This document shows, one piece after another, positions 20,672 to 49,112 of a DNA stretch of 64,000 bases. How positions within the stretch are numbered: the stretch's first letter is position 1; each line of letters starts with the position of its first letter. The position numbers were made by a program, and so were the translations under genes. This DNA is from Nitrosopumilus sp. (lineage in GTDB: Archaea; Thermoproteota; Nitrososphaeria; Nitrososphaerales; Nitrosopumilaceae): the NCBI GenBank assembly GCA_965224195.1, contig OZ245040.1:992001-1056000 (forward strand), given 5' to 3'. The notes below the pieces were generated by a model. It saw only the letters and a program-made list of their open reading frames with translations. It made no database searches and was not told where the DNA came from.

Positions 20672-23600
20672 GTGAACTGCCCTTATTTTTTTATCCTTGG
20701 TATAATTACATTGGCTCTAGTCGGCGGAGTCTCATCTGTGGGGGGGGGGTGGCATATGCTGACAATGCTGCTGATGCTGCCGGCGACATTCTAGTTGCAG
20801 ACTCGGGCAACCACCGCATCCAGGTGTTCAATCCTGACCATTCCTTCAAGTTTCAGTTTGGCAGCTCAGGCTCTGGTGACGGCCAGTTTAATACGCCCTG
20901 GAGCACGGCAATAGCACAAAACGGCGACATACTGGTAGTAGATCAGGGCAACCACCGCGTCCAGATATTCAACTCTGATGGCACATACAAGGCAAAGATT
21001 GGCAGCAGCACTTCTGGTGCTGCAGGCAGTAGTAGTGCCAACGGCGAGTTTGACAGCCCCCGAGGCATAACTATAACATCAGGCGGCGACATTCTAGTTG
21101 CAGACACGGGCAACAACCGCATCCAGGTGTTCAATCCTGACTATTCCTACAAGTCCAAGTTTGGCAGTCTGGGCAGCGGCAACGGCCAGCTCAACACTCC
21201 TTATGCTATAACGGTAGCAGCACCAAGCGGCGACATTCTAGTTGCAGACTCGGGCAACCACCGCATCCATATTTTTGACTCTAGCTATGCCTACAAGGCA
21301 AAGTTTGATAATAAAGTATCACAGTTTTTATCCGCACAAGGAGCCCATGCCATAGCAGTAGGGGCTAATGGCGATATCCTCGTTAATACGGGCTATGGTA
21401 GTATCGCTGTTTATGACTCTGCCACCTACGCCATAAAATCACTCCTTTCTAGTAACGCCGGCCAGGCCAGTAGCGGCATACTAGGCATAGCTGTCGCTCC
21501 AAACGGCGACATTCTCTTTACAGATACAGGAAGACATCACGTACAGGTATTCGGCTCTGACTATGTCTACAAGGCAGTTTTTGGCAGCTCAGGCTCTGGT
21601 GACGGCCAGTTTAACACCCCTTACGGCATAACAGTCGCCACTGCTGACAATACCCCGCCAAAATTTGATTCAGCAACACTAGATGAGGAAACCGGAGTTT
21701 TGGCAATAACTTTTAATGAGATAATTGCAAACGAGGGCTTGTCTACTGCCCCCTTTGATTTATCCAAACTGTTCATCAGTGAGACGGGAAGTGCCAGCGG
21801 CAGCAGCGGCGTTCAACTGAGCGGTGCCAGCATTGAAACTGTCGGCAACAGCACCTCCATAGAGATCAAGCTTACTGCACCTCAATTACAGTCAGTCATT
21901 GCATTGACTACTCCAGAACTGGACATCCTAGAAGCGGCAGTATTTGATGTTTCAGGTAATGAGATTCTCGCATCATATGACAATATCATTGCAGTAACTA
22001 ACAGTGTAGCACCAGTATCACCACCACTTGCTGCTCCAACTGGCCTTTCAGTGGCAGTATCTGGCACCACAGCTACCATCACTTGGACTGCACCTGCAAT
22101 ACCGGCCAATTCATTCTATGACATTAATTCCGTATCCTATATCGTGAATGTCACTGATACTGCTGCTGGCACCACCGTACCGTATACCGTACCTGCTGGC
22201 ACTACCGAGCATACGACGAACCTGATATTGGGCCAATTTTATGAGGTAACCGTAGAGGCAACAGCCTTGTTGTCAGATTCAACCGTTCTGTCCTCCCAAC
22301 CTACCGCAGCTGTATCCTTTGCTGTGTCTGAACCACCATCACTTGATGCGCCAACCAACCTTTCAGTGGCTGTATCTGGCACCACAGCTACTATTACTTG
22401 GACTGCACCTACAGTGGATACCAATGACTTCTATACCATTAATGATGTGAGTTATCAAGTGACTGTCGTTGATTCTGACGGTTCTGGTGCTGCATCAAGT
22501 GGTTCTATAACTGGCACCTCATATACGGCAACAGGCCTGACACCGGGTGAGTCATACAATGTATATGTAGTTGCATATGCTGTCGTTGGATCAAGCTATA
22601 CTGTGGAATCAGTTGAGGTATCTGCTTCCTTTAATATGCCAGCAGCAGCAGTAGTAGTAGTAGATAGCGGTGCAGGCACACCGCCATCACCAGATCAGAT
22701 TAAAGTACAAAATTTAGAGATAGAAAAAACAGGTAACAAAAGAGTCACTTTAACATGGAAAGCACCAGCAAATTCAGGTGATAAAGTATTAGATTATTAT
22801 AGTATCTCATACAATTGTCCTGCTACTCATGGTACAAAATATACTGAGATTCATACTGGCTTTACATCTGTGTCTATAGATAATTTGGATATAAGCGGCA
22901 TATGCAGGTTTCAAGTAACTCCAATATATCCTTCTGGTGGTGGTGTTAATAGTCTAATATTTCCTGGTGTTGATGGTGGTGTTACTGATAAAGGATTATC
23001 AGCTCCTCTAAAAGACATACCATTTACTGAAACACCAAAAGACATACGATTAACTGCTGCAATGGATGGCAGTGATGCAATCAAGGTGTCATGGCTTTCA
23101 ATATCCAGTGATATAGCTTTTTATGAACTGTCTTTGGGTGATGGTGATGACTCAAGAGGACTTGTGCCTTTAAAGGACTTTAAATATGAAGATGATAGGC
23201 CAACATCACAAATAATTAAAAACGTTGATCCTGGACGTACATATACTATTTACTTGGTTCTATACAATTATGAGGGCTCGGTACATTCTACTACTTTTAT
23301 TAAATATACAGTACCTGTTGACAGCATCCCGCCAAAATTAGAGTCAGCCGCACTGGATGAGGAAACAGGAGTCCTGACAATAACTTTTGATGAGATAATA
23401 GCAAACGAGGGCTTGTCTACTGCCCCCTTTGATTTATCCAAACTGTTCATCAGTGAGTCGGGAAGTGTTAATGGTACCGGCACGGCACTGAGCGGTGCCA
23501 GCATTGAAACTGTCGGCAACAGCACCTCCATAGAGATCAAGCTGACCGAATCCCAAAGACTGGCAGTCATTGCATTAACTGTCCCAGAACTGGACATCCT

Positions 23601-26001
23601 AGAAGCGGCAGTATTTGATGTTTCAGGCAATCAAATAGCTGCGGCACTAGACAATGCCATTGCAGTAACTAACAGTGTACAGCCGCCATCACTTGATGCG
23701 CCAACCAACCTTTTAGTCAATGTCATAAACGACACAGCCGCTGAAATTACCTGGACTGCACCTGCAATACCTGCCAATCCATTCTATGACATTAGTGACG
23801 TATCCTATCTCGTGAATGTTACTGATACTGCTGCTGGCACCACCGTACCGTATACCGTACCTGCTGGCACCACTACCACGCATACGGCAACAAACCTGAT
23901 ACCGGGCAAGTCCTATAATGCATCTGTAAAGGCAATAGTCTTGCTAGATTCAGGCGATGATTTGGAATCATCTGCCACAGCTGTATCCTTTGATATGCCG
24001 CCACCACTTGATGCGCCAACTAACATTTTAGTCAATGTCATAAACGGCACAGCCGCTGAAATCACTTGGACTGCACCTACAGTGGATGCCAATGAGTATT
24101 ATACCATTAATAATGTGAGTTATCAAGTAATTGTCCTTGATTCTATCAATGCTCCTACTGCATCAAGTGGTTCTATAACTGACACCTCATATACGGCAAC
24201 AGGCCTGACACCGGGTAAGTCATACAACGTATTTGTAGTTGCAGATGCCGCCGTTGGATTAACATATACTGTGCAATCATCTGCGGTATCTGCCCCCTTT
24301 GATATGCCTGCAGCAGATGCCCAAGCCGCAGCAGATGCCCAAGCCGCAGCAGATGCCCAAGCCGCAGCAGATGCCCAAGCCGCAGCAGATGCCCAAGCCG
24401 CGGCAGATGCCCAAGCCGCAGCAGATGCCCAAGCCGCAGCAGATGCCCAAGCCGCAGCAGATGCCCAAGCCGCAGCAGATGCCCAAGCCGCAGCAGATGC
24501 CCAAGCCGCAGCAGATGCCCAAGCCGCAGCAGATGCCCAAGCCGCAGCAGATGCCCAAGCCGCAGCAGATGCAGATGCCCAAGCCGCAGCAGATGCCCAA
24601 GCCGCGGCAGATGCTATAGATCCTGCACCAGTTGTTGTAACAGTAAATGCTGCAATGTATAACAGCACTGCAATCTTACTGACGTGGACCCAGCCGCCAT
24701 CATTAGAGGTAACTGGCTATGATTTATCATGGGTATCAGAGGATGCTAATGGTGACCCACATACTGGTGGTTACATATCACTTGACGGTGTAATAGGTGA
24801 TGTATTAGAATCCCACATATTTAATAAAGTTAATCCTGGAGAGACATACCACTTTACATTGGGTGTATTTTTCAATGTAGAAGGTCTTCCACAGCCTTTT
24901 GGCTCTTATGATGTGACATATACAGTACCAGATCCTAACGCAGATTCACTAAAAGATCACAAAAAGAAGAGGAGTACTGGCAGCTCAAATGAGCACTACA
25001 AAAAGCCAACCTTTGGACTGTCCCATCTGACAGAAAGTCTGATTGTAAATAATGGCATGTGCCTTAATGACAGCTGCGTTGACGTTGTATCATGGCACAC
25101 AAAATATCCGGAGGATAAAATATTAATAGACACCACAAACTATCTGCAGGCCAAAATGTACACTGATAAAACTTTGCGATATGTAGAGTTTTTCTTTGGA
25201 GTGCCAAGGCCTGGAGATGCATCTAATGCAGAGGTATTCGTAAAGGTAAGCCTGTCTAGAAACTATACCAGTCCAAATAACTATGATGTAACTGGCATCA
25301 GTACCATTGATGCAGAAGGTTTGCTGGATGGTACTGTAACTGCTGCAACCATACAGCCAAGCAAATGTCTTAGTGCAGATGCCGAACCAAACTGTCACAC
25401 TGTAACATTGCAGTTTGACTTCAACGAGGCGCCAATACACAGGGCATTTGCCATAGCGGCAGTTGACATGGACAGACGAGTCCATACAAATTACTTTAAT
25501 GACGGCTTTGTGGTACTTGGCGAATCACTAAATCCGGCAGACATGCACCATGTTGCAAACAGTGGCAAGTATCACTCTAATGAATATGCAAGTACGCACC
25601 AGCTGACACTGACCCAGACAGACAGGGCCAAGAACCTGTGGGCTGACCAGTGGGGATTTGCCTGGACACAAAATGACCATGGTACATGGCTCCAGCTGGA
25701 ACGAGATGAGTTTGTACGACACCAGGATGACATTAGCAGCGTAATGACCAGAACAAACTCTAACTATGACAGTATGATATCCCATGAGAAGGACCGCGCA
25801 TTGCAGCATGCAAAGGATATGTATGGCAGCATATATGACAAACCATCCTCTGATCTGGCAGAGCCTGTAACCATATGGATTGTGCCCTCACCAACAAGCA
25901 AGCTGCAAAACCCGGAGATACTTGATGCAATGAAACTGGAGGAAGCAAAGGCAATGAGCTATTTGCAGCATATGGTACGCGCAGACATGTCGCGCAAATG
26001 A
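20672..26001 (+). CDS. Giant surface protein (NHL repeats, FnIII domains, ADAQAA repeat); signal peptide out of frame at G10 tract 20740-20749
   Basis: ORF 20749-26001 has several GDILVADSGNHRIQVF NHL repeats and APTNL..ITWTAP FnIII modules; upstream GTG 20672 encodes a hydrophobic signal peptide in a different frame. Confidence 0.88.
20740..20749 (+). repeat. G10 homopolymer tract (candidate phase-variation switch)
   Basis: tctgtGGGGGGGGGGtggcatatgct; the only long G run I saw in this AT-rich window. Confidence 0.8.
24310..24613 (+). repeat. 18-bp coding tandem repeat, about 16 copies (GCAGATGCCCAAGCCGCA; ADAQAA)
   Basis: Near-perfect units; one 6-bp insertion and two GCG variants. Confidence 0.97.
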
Positions 26002-26127
26002 TATCCCGTATTTTTTGAATGTTATGTTATCTGATACTTTGGTCAAAACTAGGCCGGATTTTTAACTGATGGTAAATTCGGGTGACAGAGTGGTTCAGTT
26101 AGGGTGATGGTAAAATTATTGGCATGA

Positions 26128-26337
26128 TCATTTTTTATCATCATCTAATAATTTTTTCAAACCATAGCCTGCTATGCCTAAAAATACCCCTACAATGGCA
26201 AATCCAGATGCATGTGTTGGATTATCTGGTTTTTTGATTTTTCTGTCCAAGCATGTGTTTGGTATTGGATTTATAATATCATATTCAATTTTTGCTTTGC
26301 GTAAAACTTTTTCTGTTTCTTGATGTGCAGAATAACT
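26128..26337 (-). pseudogene. C-terminal fragment of a membrane-anchored protein, cut at the IS left end
   Basis: ORF start codon lies inside the IS terminal repeat; C-terminal TM GFAIVGVFLGIAGYGLKK. Confidence 0.6.
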
Positions 26338-27406
26338 AGATGAGTTGTGCAATTAGTCCAATTTGAGCATAATCTCAACATTTTCTAATCATAAGATCCA
26401 AAGCTAAGGCTGAATTATTTTCAATTCATGTTTAATTGCACAAAACTGGCAAAAAAACCAAAGCAATTTCTGCCAATAGCAGGACTAACTGTTCCACAGT
26501 TTGATTCCCCATACAAGGAAACAAAGAAAAATTACAAAACTGCAGAACAAAAGGGACTGTCCAAAAACAGAGAAAGGGACATTGGTGCAGGACACAAGTT
26601 TGACTTGTCCTTCAAAGGCAGAATTCTAATGTTTTTCATGTACTACAGAATGTACACAGCATATGACATGCCAGGGATGACATTTGATTTGGACAAACCA
26701 AACGTAATGAGAAACATCGGATGTTTGGAGCCTGCAGTGAAGCAGTCCATTGTAATTGCTGCCAAAAAATATGCAGACTCAAAAGAGATTAACGGCATGC
26801 AGGAACTGCAGGAATTCTTTCCGGAATTAGTTGCAATCACTGATGGCACAGAACAGCCCATCCCAAGACCAAAAAACAAAAAGAAAAGAAAGGCACGCCA
26901 TTCAGGCAAAAAGAAAAAGCATGCAGTACAAAATCAAGTCGCCATAAATCCTGATGGGATAACAATCCACAAATCTGCACATTCGCCTGGCAGCCATCAT
27001 GATTACGGAATTTACAAACCAAGGCATCCAACATTGTCTGAAGAGCTGCTGCAGTCTTATGATCCTGGATGTTTGGGGATGGAAAAGGACTTTCCAGAAC
27101 AGGCAAGTGTTTTGCCATGCAAGAAAAAGAAAGGAAAAAAATTGACTGTTGCTCAAAAGGAGTGGAACAGGATGCAGTCAAAAATTAGAATAAAAGTTGG
27201 ACGTGTCATTGCACAAGTCAGGCAATTTCGGATAAATCGCGATGTGTTTAGAAACAAATTATGCAGATATGATGTGACAAGTGAAATTGTTTGTGGGACT
27301 GTCAGTTTCAAGATTAAATGGAAAGAAGAATTCATTGCAATTCCATAAAATTAAGAATTAAATGACAGAAAAGTTAGATTTTTGTTTGTAATTACGCAAC
27401 TCATCT
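26338..27406 (+). mobile_element. IS5-family (ISL2-like) insertion sequence, about 1069 bp
   Basis: 18-bp imperfect TIRs AGATGAGTTGTGCAATTA (26338-26355) and TAATTACGCAACTCATCT (27389-27406), 16/18 match, enclosing a transposase; flanks CTA and TTA are not a matching TSD. Confidence 0.9.
26428..27348 (+). pseudogene. DDE transposase (HTH_Tnp_4 plus DDE_Tnp_4 type); frame open but catalytic Glu appears mutated
   Basis: GAGHKFDL, DGTEQPIPRP, SGKKKKH, HD; DPGCLG in place of DxGYxG; RIKVGR in place of RIxVEH. Confidence 0.85.
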
Positions 27407-27991
27407 TATAAGATGAAACATCATGATGCCATGAAAGACAAAGCTCATGACAAAATGTCTGATGCAGCAAAAGACAAAATGAAAATGAAATTATCTGACA
27501 AATCTGACCGTATCAAGGCAATGATCATGGACAAACATGACATTTCTGATGAGCGTAGAGAAGAAATCAAGATGAAATACATTGAGAAACATGGTGATCT
27601 GACTGACGAGAAAAAGTCTGAACTCAAAATGAAATTCAAAGATCATATGAAAAATATGAGAATGGAAATCTCTGATGAGCGAAAATCTTCAATTCATGAT
27701 AGACTAGCTGAGATGAAAGCCTTCAAGGCAGAACTCCGTGATAGAGCATCTGAAATGACTGACGAGGAAAAACAGGAACTTGGAGCAGAATTCATTGAAA
27801 AGGCAAAAGACATGCAATTAGCATGGATTTCCCCACGCACACAAATGACTGCCGGCATTGATGCTGGAGATGTAGAATGTAGAGAAGGATTTAGCCTGGT
27901 AATGAAAGCATCAAACGGTGTTGCAATGTGCCTTAAAGCAGATACAGCACTTAAGATGATAGATAGAGGACTAGTAGTTCCTGCTAACTAA
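27407..27991 (+). pseudogene. C-terminal part of a His/Met/Asp/Lys-rich helical thaumarchaeal protein, probably truncated by the IS
   Basis: Begins mid low-complexity region right at the IS end, with no signal peptide and no promoter space; ends in the SPRxQM...CREG..LVMK.S.G...C domain. Confidence 0.65.
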
Positions 27992-47933: not shown

Positions 47934-48006
47934 TAATTTGATAAAGCGTTTTGATTATTACTATATTGTGTATTCATCTAAATATTGATGAAAGAATAGT
48001 ATTATC

Positions 48007-48255
48007 ATGGAATATCCCGTCTCAGTAGATGAAAATGGTGTCAAGTTTAAACCTGAAAAAATGGAAAAGGAAAAACTCTATCATTGTATCTTCAAAAACA
48101 AGGCAATGTTGGTATTCAAGGATTCTCAAGATGTCATGAATTGCTATGAAATTGAAGAACCTGATTTAGTTGAACAAATTAGCAAATGTGATAGTGATGA
48201 CGATCTTGAAAAATTATTTGAGGACTATTTACAAGGAAAACACCTGAAAAATTAA
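48007..48255 (+). CDS. Hypothetical protein
   Basis: 82-aa ORF with normal codon usage. Confidence 0.7.
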
Positions 48256-48296
48256 ATAAAAGCGAGAGAGAAATTCGGTATAACAGGAATTTAAAA

Positions 48297-49112
48297 TTGA
48301 GCAGTAATAAAAAATCAAAAGACGCAGAAGACATCTTATCAGAATTTGGTTCTAGGGTTAAATCAGAACCTGAACCGACATCAGAACCTGAACCGACACC
48401 AGAACCTGAACCGACACCAGAACCTGAACCGACACCAGAACCTGAACCGACACCAGAACCTGAACCGACACCAGAACCTGAACCGACACCAGAACCTGAA
48501 CCGACACCAGAACCTGAACCGACACCAGAACCTGAACCGACACCAGAACCTGAACCGACACCAGAACCTGAACCGACACCAGAACCTGAACCGACACCAG
48601 AACCTGAACCGACACCAGAACCTGAACCGACACCAGAACCTGAACCGACACCAGAACCTGAACCGACACCAGAACCTGAACCGACACCAGAACCTGAACC
48701 GACACCAGAACCTGAACCAACACCAGAACCTGAACCAACACCAGAACCTGAACCAACACCAGAACCTGAACCAACACCAGAACCTGAACCAACACCAGAA
48801 CAAAGTTCAAGCAAAACTACAGATTCTCCTAAAGTTCACGAAGAACGTGATGTAATTTTTGTTGGTACAAAACCAATTATGACTTATGTTTCTGCAACAC
48901 TAACTCAACTTTCAACTAGATCCGTTGTTACTATCAAAGCAAGAGGTAAACGAATTACACAAGCTGTTGATGTTTCACAAATGATTGTAAAGCGAATGGA
49001 TTCAGTTGGATATGTAATTAGTGATGTTAGGATTTCATCTGATTCTTTAACTTCTCAAGATGGAAAACAACGTAATGTTTCCACAATGGAAATTGATATT
49101 TCAAAAAACTAG
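48297..49112 (+). CDS. Alba-domain chromatin/RNA-binding protein with a long (PEPEPT)n N-terminal extension
   Basis: C-terminal [12 protein letters not shown]...[14 protein letters not shown]...RNVSTMEI Alba signature. Confidence 0.9.
48363..48800 (+). repeat. 18-bp coding tandem repeat, about 24 copies (CCAGAACCTGAACCGACA)
   Basis: First two units start TCA, last five carry CCAACA; otherwise perfect. Confidence 0.98.

Follow-up and report, generated by a model that had tools for sequence, protein, structure and literature searches.

Within a single prokaryotic genome, insertion sequence (IS) copies tend to be nearly identical or else to decay with the host's ordinary AT-biased spectrum. In Neurospora and other fungi, repeat-induced point mutation (RIP) changes C to T, mainly at CpA, by means of a cytosine-methyltransferase-like enzyme during the sexual cycle. 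In yeast, gene conversion and break-repair synthesis are mutagenic, with a higher mutation rate in the DNA copied during repair and with template switching; we know of no demonstration of such repair-synthesis mutagenesis in archaea or for IS families. Loss of mismatch repair (MMR) has been characterized in bacteria: a preprint on mutL and mutS strains of E. coli reports A:T>G:C changes at 5′NAC3′ as dominant (bioRxiv 10.1101/346874), and a report on nucS-null mycobacteria describes transitions only, together with more homeologous recombination (PMC5290159).

Here we describe a 23-copy IS family of a Nitrosopumilus genome that is a clean, internally replicated record of another process, one of transitions only, directed toward GC and apparently confined to repeats. 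The family resembles RIP in that point mutation appears to be confined to duplicated DNA, only transitions occur and transposons are inactivated without being deleted, but differs from it in being mainly A:T>G:C (54 vs 13 changes), in following no dinucleotide rule, in that no candidate enzyme was found and in its archaeal host. As for the restriction of RIP to duplicated DNA, the ratio of transitions to transversions (ts/tv) reaches 22 in these repeats versus 0.8-2.2 in single-copy DNA compared between species. A full-text literature search found no description of this pattern, nor did passages of two surveys that cover the mobile elements of archaea and thaumarchaea (PMC13343696, PMC6563490).

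A dead transposase gene with an open frame

The window, by which we mean the whole stretch of 64,000 nucleotides that was analysed, carries one of the 23 full-length copies in the genome. Its features are as follows, in window positions.

26335..26337, no strand: left flank ACT; the right flank, 27407-27409, is TAT
26338..27406, + strand: complete insertion sequence of 1069 bp, copy c01 of the 23-copy family
26338..26355, + strand: left terminal inverted repeat, 18 bp, pairing with 27389-27406 with two mismatches, both T/C
26428..27348, + strand: transposase frame, 306 aa, open, with an HTH_Tnp_4-like stretch and a DDE_Tnp_4 domain
26842..26844, + strand: first catalytic Asp codon (D139), kept; D139 is nearly invariant in 64 homologues
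27061..27063, + strand: second catalytic Asp codon (D212), kept; the adjoining L213 is changed to P and Y215 to C
27199..27201, + strand: codon 258, GGA (Gly); Glu in 64 of 64 external homologues
27389..27406, − strand: right terminal inverted repeat, 18 bp

The window transposase matched the Pfam DDE_Tnp_4 profile with 73.4 bits (gathering cut-off 24.8), and the element is an IS5-family (Pfam DDE_Tnp_4) insertion sequence. In its domains, its short inverted ends, the 3-bp target duplications of some copies and its high copy number it resembles the IS5 family with DDE_Tnp_4 or PIF-Harbinger-like transposases, but the window copy departs from this norm in having lost the catalytic Glu together with 31 further conserved residues and in scoring below the NCBIfam transpos_IS5_4 equivalog cut-off (61.1 bits vs 140). 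An earlier, sequence-only reading of this DNA had placed the element, the frame and the inverted ends correctly, including the two T/C mismatches, and the ends are kept across all 23 copies. Because its flanks are ACT and TAT, the window copy is without a target-site duplication; copy c09 has the reciprocal flanks (TAT...ACT), and 3-bp duplications are intact in 6 of the 23 copies (c04, c06, c14, c19, c20 and c23).

With Gly at codon 258 where the homologues have Glu, the catalytic Glu was lost by A>G (E258G), an allele carried by 9 of the 23 copies. The D-D-E triad of the window copy is therefore not intact, D139 and D212 being kept and E258 being Gly, and this IS5-family (DDE_Tnp_4) copy is predicted from its residues to be catalytically dead with its frame still open. 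It has the highest GC of the family (38.0%; range 34.4-38.0%) and is the most mutated of the 23 copies. Compared with their majority consensus, it carries 27 A:T>G:C and 3 G:C>A:T changes, with no transversions and no indels. That 27 of 30 changes are A:T>G:C is far beyond chance under the single-copy spectrum of the lineage, in which A:T>G:C transitions make up 39% and transversions 36% over all sites.

The same direction was seen at the protein level. In comparison with 64 external homologues of 57-76% identity, the closest relative in the database outside this genome being at 76%, the window copy has non-family residues at 32 sites through a G/C allele and at none through an A/T allele. Among these are E258G, H259R, L213P, Y215C, H157R, Y231C, D64G, R98G, Y99C, N293S, S16P, L28P, L82P, L175P and S198P. 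The sequence-only reading had proposed, from family motifs, that typical residues were replaced by way of A→G or T→C, and both the 23-copy consensus and the external homologues bear this out; the 64 homologues have Glu at 258 without exception. Some of its examples need correcting. Y158H and T166A are real changes but are fixed in 23 of 23 copies and not private to the window copy, and the proposed NY>NC change sits in 18 other copies, Y36 being kept here. Pfam scores fall from 85.1, 43.9 and 31.4 bits in the AT-type copy c20 to 73.4, 16.9 and 19.4 bits in the window copy. Since A:T>G:C changes cannot create stop codons, as the reading had correctly argued, dead copies keep an open frame; every stop in the family arose from a G:C>A:T transition or a transversion.

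Family divergence is nearly transitions alone and mainly toward GC

Across the alignment of all copies, 121 of 1069 columns are variable, 58 of them A/G and 43 C/T (101 pure transition), with 7 containing a transversion and none being A/T. Pairwise differences over all 276 pairs amount to 8741 transitions vs 395 transversions. The ts/tv is ~17 by columns and 22 by pairs. Polarisation at the DNA level, with five outgroup lineages, assigned a direction at 73 of 110 biallelic sites (37 unpolarised) and yielded 54 A:T>G:C changes, 13 G:C>A:T changes and 6 transversions. Polarisation at the protein level gave the same answer: for 60 non-synonymous transition polymorphisms, the homologue residue corresponds to the A/T allele in 43 cases and to the G/C allele in 5, with 12 ambiguous. 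A:T>G:C is dominant by two independent polarisations. Aligning the copies and tabulating their substitutions had been proposed as a check on the sequence-only reading, and the resulting spectrum is neither balanced nor dominated by GC→AT.

G:C>A:T transitions are raised as well relative to transversions (13 vs 6). Among changes with derived counts of 6-22, 37 are A:T>G:C vs 3 G:C>A:T. Among singletons the spectrum is ordinary (3 A:T>G:C, 6 G:C>A:T and 4 transversions), suggesting that the process may not be active now. The W>S transversions, few in number at 4 (2 A>C and 2 T>G), are all singletons. Purifying selection as the force shaping the family spectrum was rejected, since the synonymous share of 0.33 (66 non-synonymous vs 32 synonymous changes) equals the random expectation. 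We show that divergence in this family is neutral, consists of nearly transitions alone, is mainly A:T>G:C and affects the strands equally.

Strand, context and position

On the coding strand, 33 of 433 A changed to G and 21 of 275 T changed to C. Editing of the transposase mRNA was rejected, because the per-site frequency of T>C on this strand matches that of A>G. The family also differs from a diversity-generating retroelement, which would change adenine to any base in one target repeat, in that A>G (33) far outnumbers A>C (2) and A>T (0), T>C is equally frequent on the same strand, and all 23 copies are involved. The A:T>G:C changes depend on the 3′ base (C 15/90, G 12/95, T 16/210, A 11/293; p = 2 × 10−4), so that NAC is favoured over NAA, with NAG equally favoured. 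Single-copy DNA has the same 3′-base ranking for A>G on both branches analysed below. A methylation motif or base-calling artefact was rejected on the grounds that 103 polymorphic purine sites have no common motif. Strand-coordinated clusters were not found (23 runs vs 26.7 expected).

Fixed mutational hotspots were likewise rejected as the source of the shared alleles: the polymorphic positions of this family, in the window's genome (G000), and of a family in the relative G017 coincide no more often than chance predicts (10 shared vs 7.8 expected, p = 0.43). Derived-allele count showed no significant relation to chromosome position (Spearman 0.27-0.35, p 0.1-0.2), and GC skew gave no origin or terminus signal.

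Repair and deaminase genes

In a Pfam profile search of five genomes, MutS_V, Endonuclease_5 and A_deaminase had no match in any. The sole NucS_C match is a 383-aa protein with only the C-terminal half of NucS (57 bits vs a cut-off of 216), located in a type I restriction-modification locus. A search for nucS had been suggested alongside the sequence-only reading, and its outcome is that there is no canonical NucS/EndoMS, this partial match aside. The protein is present in G000, G017 and G009, with a weak match in G007, and was not found in G242, G069, G015, G021, G002 or G176; it was dropped as a lead, with too few genomes and no mechanism. One CDA-fold deaminase, dCMP-deaminase-like, is common to all five genomes checked. 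Searches with Pfam dCMP_cyt_deam_1 and A_deaminase, and a scan for the zinc motif in 5,091 open frames, found no extra deaminase genes; the adenine deaminase gene that the sequence-only reading looked to was not found.

Other repeats and other genomes

In other duplicated DNA, too, transitions prevail among dispersed differences (18:2, 15:2, 24:3 and 34:6). Duplicates with low ts/tv were rejected as a baseline, since transversion-rich pairs differ in clusters at diverged edges; one 4.7-kb duplication, for example, shows no difference over 4.2 kb and 66 within its last 500 bp. Other IS families of the same genome have a ts/tv of 3-5 by columns, and those with 10 and 13 copies are affected to a lesser degree. 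A sister-family copy at G000 495452-496376 has 57 A:T>G:C changes vs 7 and a GC content of 40.2%, with AT-rich siblings, and a broken IS1595 copy at 782920 gave ratios of 15:1 and 16:3. Together with the 23-copy family, these make three IS families that contain GC-shifted dead copies. The relative G009 has this pattern in another IS family, and in G017 it is weaker. It is absent from the homologous IS of the congener G242 (395:146, ts/tv ~2.7, 28 pairs among 8 copies of 97-99% identity), and IS pairs in G176 gave 17:9, 10:6 and 19:6.

An accessory system, carried by some genomes of the genus (G000, G009, weakly G017, not G242), might mutate repeats mainly by A:T>G:C as a prokaryotic counterpart of RIP. 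We regard this as unlikely; in a weaker version of the claim, the neutral mutation bias of these AT-rich archaea may be GC-ward. Targeted editing proper, in which a host or element enzyme deaminates adenine and some cytosine in repeats as a silencing device, an archaeal analogue of RIP in some genomes, would explain the directional A:T>G:C bursts in single copies and the restriction to repeated DNA. It would fit the distribution over G000, G009 and weakly G017, and not G242 or G176, as expected of an accessory system, and the flat derived-allele spectrum with its few rare A:T>G:C alleles resembles past bursts. However, no candidate enzyme was found, the dCMP-deaminase-like gene being in 5 of 5 genomes and A_deaminase in none; the sites have no strong motif and an ordinary genomic context; G:C>A:T changes are raised too; the strands are hit equally and interspersed; and the 10- and 13-copy families of the same genome are less affected. 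On this evidence we judge targeted editing quite unlikely. The sequence-only reading had entertained mutagenesis restricted to repeats, and that restriction is supported (ts/tv ~17 by columns and 22 by pairs, with transition-rich differences in other duplicates), whereas its adenine-specific, RIP-like deaminase is not supported, the changes being strand-symmetric and in ordinary context.

Single-copy DNA of the lineage

Three genomes were compared over 66,784 aligned sites, from which substitutions were assigned to the window's branch and to that of a sister species. The window branch has a ts/tv of 1.78 overall; for the 5,719 fourfold sites alone it is 0.83, and for the 4,595 non-coding sites 2.17. 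On the sister branch it is 1.47 overall and 1.09 for non-coding sites. Fourfold sites, with a GC content of 19%, have more transversions than transitions. A<->T transversions make up 19% of the window branch's substitutions vs none of the 121 variable IS columns, and non-coding single-copy DNA has 56 A:T>G:C per 25 A<->T, compared with 54 per 0 A<->T columns in the IS. We show that transitions relative to transversions are ~tenfold higher in the IS family than in single-copy DNA of the lineage, which points to a mutation process acting on repeated DNA. A recent genome-wide mutator on the window branch was rejected, since the window and sister branches have 194 and 192 fourfold A:T>G:C transitions and do not differ in their A>G context rates. 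Comparison with fourfold sites was another of the proposed checks, and the absence of the bias there supports restriction to repeats. Reads from four runs gave 5 SNPs in 20 kb of single-copy DNA (4 transitions and 1 transversion), too few for a baseline.

These data bear on the suggestion that the spectrum is transition-dominated and GC-ward throughout the lineage, which has no MutS, NucS or EndoV, and is visible only in neutral young DNA: selection would hold genes and intergenic DNA AT-rich, and dead IS copies and young duplicates would reveal the bias. The repair-gene content, the agreement of IS context preferences with those of single-copy A>G and the GC-shifted dead copies in three IS families are consistent with it, as are the higher ts/tv of the window branch (1.78 vs 1.47; non-coding 2.17 vs 1.09) and, in numbers too small to count, the 4 transitions among 5 strain-level SNPs. 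The window branch is slightly transition-richer than the sister, and base-composition selection could hide part of such a spectrum. Yet fourfold A:T>G:C changes are no more numerous than on the sister branch (194 vs 192), with transversions exceeding transitions, and the IS columns lack the A<->T changes that accompany A:T>G:C in non-coding DNA (54 with 0 vs 56 with 25). By our own estimate, selection hiding a tenfold excess would also predict a fourfold GC far below 19%. In addition, IS singletons are not transition-only, IS copies in G242 have a ts/tv of ~2.7, and copies c01 and c20 differ in derived changes (26 vs 5, p = 2 × 10−4; silent changes 8 vs 3, not significant). A lineage-wide spectrum is thus possible but doubtful, and the form of it put forward in the sequence-only reading, a spectrum reversed across the lineage, is not supported, single-copy ts/tv on the window branch being 0.8-2.2 and the spectrum of the sister species no different.

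Exchange of alleles among copies

All four gametes are present at 60% of 3403 site pairs (Rm = 51), and incompatibility between neighbouring sites is 0.514 vs 0.586 ± 0.015 after permutation, with 0 of 2000 permutations as low. Block mosaics are seen among copies, copies c11 and c12 differ at only 4 sites, all within 60 bp, and reciprocal flanks occur in some copies. These patterns indicate that the copies have probably exchanged alleles, through recombination or through gene conversion in short patches, although the fine mosaic could come partly from short-read polishing of repeats.

Given this signal, we considered GC-biased gene conversion specific to transitions, in which G/T and A/C heteroduplex mismatches are resolved to G:C, so that A:T>G:C alleles spread and G:C>A:T alleles stay rare. 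As such conversion would have it, in a recombining set W>S alleles stand at higher derived frequency than S>W, A:T>G:C alleles are at intermediate or high frequency (37 vs 3 at counts 6-22; 3 vs 6 among singletons) and the high-frequency G/C alleles are truly derived. Conversion alone can account neither for how few transversions there are nor for how many new A:T>G:C alleles: in theory, biased transmission would at most ~double segregating favoured sites, and the excess over transversions is eightfold or more. Nor can it lift G:C>A:T transitions above transversions or produce the ~57 A:T>G:C changes of the 495 kb sister-family copy, whose siblings are AT-rich. We therefore consider it very unlikely as the cause.

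The data also fit two parental haplotypes plus recombinants, as would result if a GC-shifted subfamily had evolved elsewhere, re-entered by transfer and recombined, and assembly polishing is most difficult in repeats, where a mosaic might arise by artefact. Neither route accounts for alleles that are transition-only. The pattern is repeated in two further independent assemblies, the sites lack a motif typical of systematic base-calling errors, and no relative closer than 76% identity is in the database outside this genome, making artefact or admixture highly improbable.

Uncorrected synthesis on repeated DNA as a tentative explanation

We tentatively favor, over an adenine-targeting defence, uncorrected DNA synthesis linked to recombination or transposition, a reading of the sequence patterns that we hold to be plausible though somewhat short of probable. 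IS copies, unlike the rest of the chromosome, would pass through extra rounds of DNA synthesis, arising from break repair templated on other copies and possibly from transposition as well. Wobble mispairs (G:T and A:C) from that synthesis would stay uncorrected because these genomes lack MutS, endonuclease V and a canonical NucS/EndoMS. The outcome would be a replication-error spectrum without the time-dependent damage behind transversions, that is, transitions with A:T>G:C dominant and favored before C or G, and GC-biased handling of heteroduplex G/T mismatches may add to the direction. As in yeast repair-synthesis mutagenesis, raised mutation would be limited to DNA copied by recombination, with template switching between repeats, but the yeast signature includes frameshifts and template switches and is not one of pure transitions. 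The family is also like MMR-deficient cells in its near-pure transitions, in the dominance of A:T>G:C and its preference before C, and in more recombination of diverged repeats; in those cells the signature is genome-wide, whereas here it is in repeats, with single-copy ts/tv at 0.8-2.2.

That difference counts against uncorrected synthesis, since a genome without MMR should bear the signature everywhere and single-copy DNA does not. The strand-coordinated clusters predicted for resected single strands were not found (23 runs vs 26.7). The homologous IS of G242 has an ordinary ts/tv, which calls for a factor specific to some genomes; other IS families of the window's genome reach only 3-5, and singletons are ordinary.

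Implications

If recombination-linked synthesis without mismatch repair is the source of these changes, the family illustrates the evolution of repeats in organisms of this sort, and it would explain why dead transposase genes can stay open and be mis-annotated as intact. A dedicated system, if that is responsible, would represent a new type of genome defence, one that kills transposases yet leaves their frames open. Should the neutral bias be GC-ward, this would bear on the GC-richness of some symbiotic relatives. With affected and unaffected genomes in one genus, the question is testable by comparative genomics and the sequencing of close strains.

The insertion sequence and its copies

The IS5-family insertion sequence (IS) and its transposase are placed as follows.

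Window 26338-27406, + strand: insertion sequence of 1069 bp, with 18-bp terminal inverted repeats carrying two mismatches, both T/C
Window 26428-27348, + strand: open transposase frame of 306 aa, the sole open frame given for the element

The transposase matches Pfam DDE_Tnp_4 at 73.4 bits (cut-off 24.8) and, weakly, HTH_Tnp_4 and DDE_Tnp_1, and its NCBIfam IS5_4 score of 61.1 falls under the cut-off of 140. The window's own genome (G000, in which the window spans C1:992001-1056000; 2.07 Mb, GC 33.6%) carries 23 full-length copies, c01 (the window copy) to c23, which are 95.2-100% identical to the window copy, along with one truncated 724-bp copy, small fragments and a sister family at 68-74% identity. 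GC ranges from 34.4 to 38.0% among the 23 copies and is highest, 38.0%, in the window copy. A full-length open frame is kept in 12 copies, six of which retain E258. Eleven copies differ by 1 bp in a short A run at element ~103-106 (window ~26440-26443), which shifts the start from ATG (306 aa) to TTG (303 aa) and leaves the frame unbroken. The identical copies c22 and c23 lie inverted around ~1.76 kb (G000:C1:151859-155755, outside the window), an arrangement reminiscent of a composite transposon or of very recent duplication.

Copies differ by transitions toward G:C

An alignment of the 23 full-length copies (1069 columns) contained 121 polymorphic columns: 58 A/G, 43 C/T, 6 two-state transversion, 1 three-state and 13 with gaps; none was A/T. 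Summed against the majority consensus, the copies showed 534 transitions and 13 transversions. The sequence-only reading had proposed that the transposase changed almost exclusively by A:T>G:C transitions, and the window copy bears this out, with 27 A:T>G:C against 3 G:C>A:T transitions, no transversions and no indels relative to the consensus. It had also argued that such changes make no stop codons and leave the frame open; every stop codon in the family indeed arose by a G:C>A:T transition or a transversion.

Direction was assigned with DNA outgroups, namely the consensus of a related family in the relative G017, copies in the relatives G007 and G015, and the sister family. At 73 of 110 biallelic sites this gave 54 A:T>G:C, 13 G:C>A:T and 6 transversions, leaving 37 unpolarised. 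The sister family is closer to the AT-rich copies. We also polarised the protein with 64 external homologues (57-76% identity). Among 60 non-synonymous transition polymorphisms the family residue was encoded by the A/T allele at 43, by the G/C allele at 5 and ambiguously at 12, and the window copy has a non-family residue through a G/C allele at 32 sites and through an A/T allele at none. The two independent polarisations agree on direction. G/C alleles found in 20-22 of the 23 copies are derived as well. E258, H259, L213, Y215, H157, Y231 and N293, among others, show little or no variation across the homologues, and the window copy has different residues at these positions, so the ancestral residues proposed from sequence alone match these proteins. 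Of the proposed changes, Y158H and T166A are shared by all 23 copies, and Y36C occurs in 18 other copies and is absent from the window copy. Of the 54 derived alleles, c20 carries 11, compared with 35 in the window copy and 35 in c04; Pfam scores are 85.1/43.9/31.4 bits for c20 and drop to 73.4/16.9/19.4 for the window copy.

The divergence is neutral: 66 polymorphisms are non-synonymous and 32 synonymous, spread evenly across codon positions, giving a synonymous share of 0.33, just as expected at random. Strands are affected alike (A>G at 33/433 A, T>C at 21/275 T), and purine and pyrimidine changes are interspersed along the copies. Context dependence of A:T>G:C is mild, by 3′ base C 15/90, G 12/95, T 16/210 and A 11/293 (p = 2e-4), with a preference for 5′ T (p = 0.004); single-copy DNA shows the same ranking more weakly, on both the window's branch and that of its sister. 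A search for a common motif around the polymorphic sites found none.

The bias is concentrated in repeats

One explanation is a mutation spectrum shared by the whole lineage. Single-copy data are at odds with it. The closest relative found, G069, is 88% identical over a 13.6-kb core stretch, with 909 transitions and 628 transversions. In a three-genome comparison (G000 and G069 as sisters, G017 as outgroup; 66,784 sites), the transition:transversion ratio on the window's branch was 1.78 overall and 0.83 at the 5,719 fourfold sites, making this branch somewhat transition-richer than the sister branch (1.47 and 0.63). Had a recent burst of the IS's magnitude (3.5-5% of A/T sites) struck the whole genome, we estimate that ~160-230 fourfold A:T>G:C transitions would have been added to the window's branch; this excess is absent (194 vs 192 on the sister branch), and by our estimate the data are compatible with a genome-wide component of at most ~1%. 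Aligned non-coding DNA (4,595 sites) yielded 56 A:T>G:C, 33 G:C>A:T and 41 transversions (25 A<->T) on the window's branch. Scaled to transversions, the IS thus exceeds single-copy non-coding DNA ~7-fold in A:T>G:C and 2- to 3-fold in G:C>A:T.

Within G000, transitions to transversions among IS copies were 8741:395 by pairs and 104:6 by columns; all other repeats at 90-100% identity gave 2.0-4.3 by pairs, and other IS families 3-5 by columns. In transversion-rich duplicate pairs the differences are bunched at diverged edges, and where duplicates differ at scattered sites, transitions predominate (18:2, 15:2 in a DNA methylase gene, 24:3 and 34:6). GC/AT asymmetry recurs in several duplicate pairs, including a broken IS1595 copy against its intact siblings (15:1 and 16:3). 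One sister-family copy (G000:C1:495452-496376, outside the window) has 40.2% GC vs 31-33% in its siblings, with 57 A:T>G:C vs 7 G:C>A:T on its branch.

Other duplications and compositional features were recorded. An inverted duplication with a leucyl-tRNA synthetase gene (G000:C1:551152-555842 and 653061-657750, outside the window) is identical for ~4.2 kb and then has 66 differences across the final 500 bp. A 1750-aa frame at window 20749-26001 combines NHL/SGL-like and fibronectin-like repeats with a long tract of six-residue Ala/Gln/Asp units, and its GC is 39-49% vs 33.6% for the genome; window 24921-26105, covering its 3′ part, is repeated elsewhere in G000 with transition-rich differences (24:3). 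A local GC peak of 41.7% with strong A-over-T skew (0.376) lies at window 48001-49000.

Copies exchange sequence

All four gametes occurred in 60% of 3403 informative-site pairs, even less than 25 bp apart, and at least 51 recombination events are required. Incompatibility of neighbouring sites was 0.514 vs 0.586 ± 0.015 under permutation (no value this low in 2000 permutations). Several copies are clearly built of alternating AT-type and GC-type blocks, and c11 and c12 differ at four sites, all inside 60 bp; part of the fine mosaic could stem from short-read polishing of repeats. The families of G000 and G017 have 10 polymorphic positions in common vs 7.8 expected; because positions do not coincide, shared alleles are better explained by descent and conversion than by recurrent hits. 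The 3-bp target duplication survives in only 6 of 23 copies, and two pairs have reciprocal flanks.

Window copy, ACT...TAT (window 26335-26337 and 27407-27409); c09, TAT...ACT (G000:C1:1262721-1263788)
c02, ATT...AAT; c13, AAT...ATT

These flanks suggest crossovers too, that is, rearrangement via recombination between copies.

Biased gene conversion among the copies fits the frequency spectrum, in which derived alleles present in 6-22 copies comprise 37 A:T>G:C vs 3 G:C>A:T and singletons comprise 3 A:T>G:C, 6 G:C>A:T and 4 transversions. On theoretical grounds, however, conversion would be unable to supply the number of new alleles or to raise transitions above transversions. The ordinary spectrum of the singletons also counts against a lineage-wide mutation bias.

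The pattern is found in some genomes

In the related family of G017 (10 copies), 80 pure transition columns were found vs 10 two-state transversion columns, polarised as 26 A:T>G:C, 15 G:C>A:T and 5 transversions. The relative G009 carries a different IS (DDE_Tnp_1; 143 matches), most with an open 165-aa frame and Pfam scores falling from 84 to 42 bits. Among the 20 matches compared (for example G009:C1:1819112-1820249), close pairs gave 17:0, 20:1, 37:1, 41:1 and 39:1 transitions to transversions, the GC shift was directional (for example 30 vs 7), and degraded copies reached 47% GC, with GC and Pfam score negatively correlated (Spearman -0.58, p = 0.007). In the congener G242, eight copies of the IS homologous to that of the window, at 97-99% identity, gave 395:146 (~2.7) over 28 pairs and no GC asymmetry, again at odds with a lineage-wide spectrum; pairs in G176 gave 17:9, 10:6 and 19:6. 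Since G000 and G009, and to a lesser degree G017, are affected and G242 and G176 are not, the pattern belongs to some genomes, neither to a transposon family nor to the whole genus.

MutS_V, Endonuclease_5 and A_deaminase had no match in the five genomes searched, and the only CDA-fold deaminase, dCMP-deaminase-like, is common to all five. The sole NucS_C match in G000 is a 383-aa protein that aligns with NucS over its C-terminal nuclease half alone, at 57 bits vs a cut-off of 216, and is encoded in the following locus.

G000:C1:507000-518500, outside the window: type I restriction-modification locus with an EVE-domain gene, hsdR, two opposed hsdS, a tyrosine recombinase, hsdM and the 383-aa NucS_C protein

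NucS_C matches are present in G000, G017 and G009, the three genomes that have transition-only repeats, weak in G007 and not found in G242, G069, G015, G021, G002 and G176; these genomes are too few for an association. A pure adenine deaminase does not match these observations: G:C>A:T is raised too, the strands are symmetric, the context is that of the ordinary genome and no candidate gene was found.

A possible origin in uncorrected synthesis

Full-text searching, and passages from surveys of mobile elements in archaea and thaumarchaea, gave no account of prokaryotic insertion sequences decaying by transitions alone or in a RIP-like manner. Mismatch-repair-defective E. coli is reported to show A:T>G:C at 5′NAC3′ (bioRxiv 10.1101/346874), and nucS-null mycobacteria to show only transitions and increased homeologous recombination (PMC5290159). 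The IS spectrum is that reported for uncorrected replication errors. Based on this likeness, we tentatively favour a mechanism in which the copies would undergo additional DNA synthesis during recombination or transposition among themselves and the errors made would stay uncorrected; some genome-specific factor would be needed as well.
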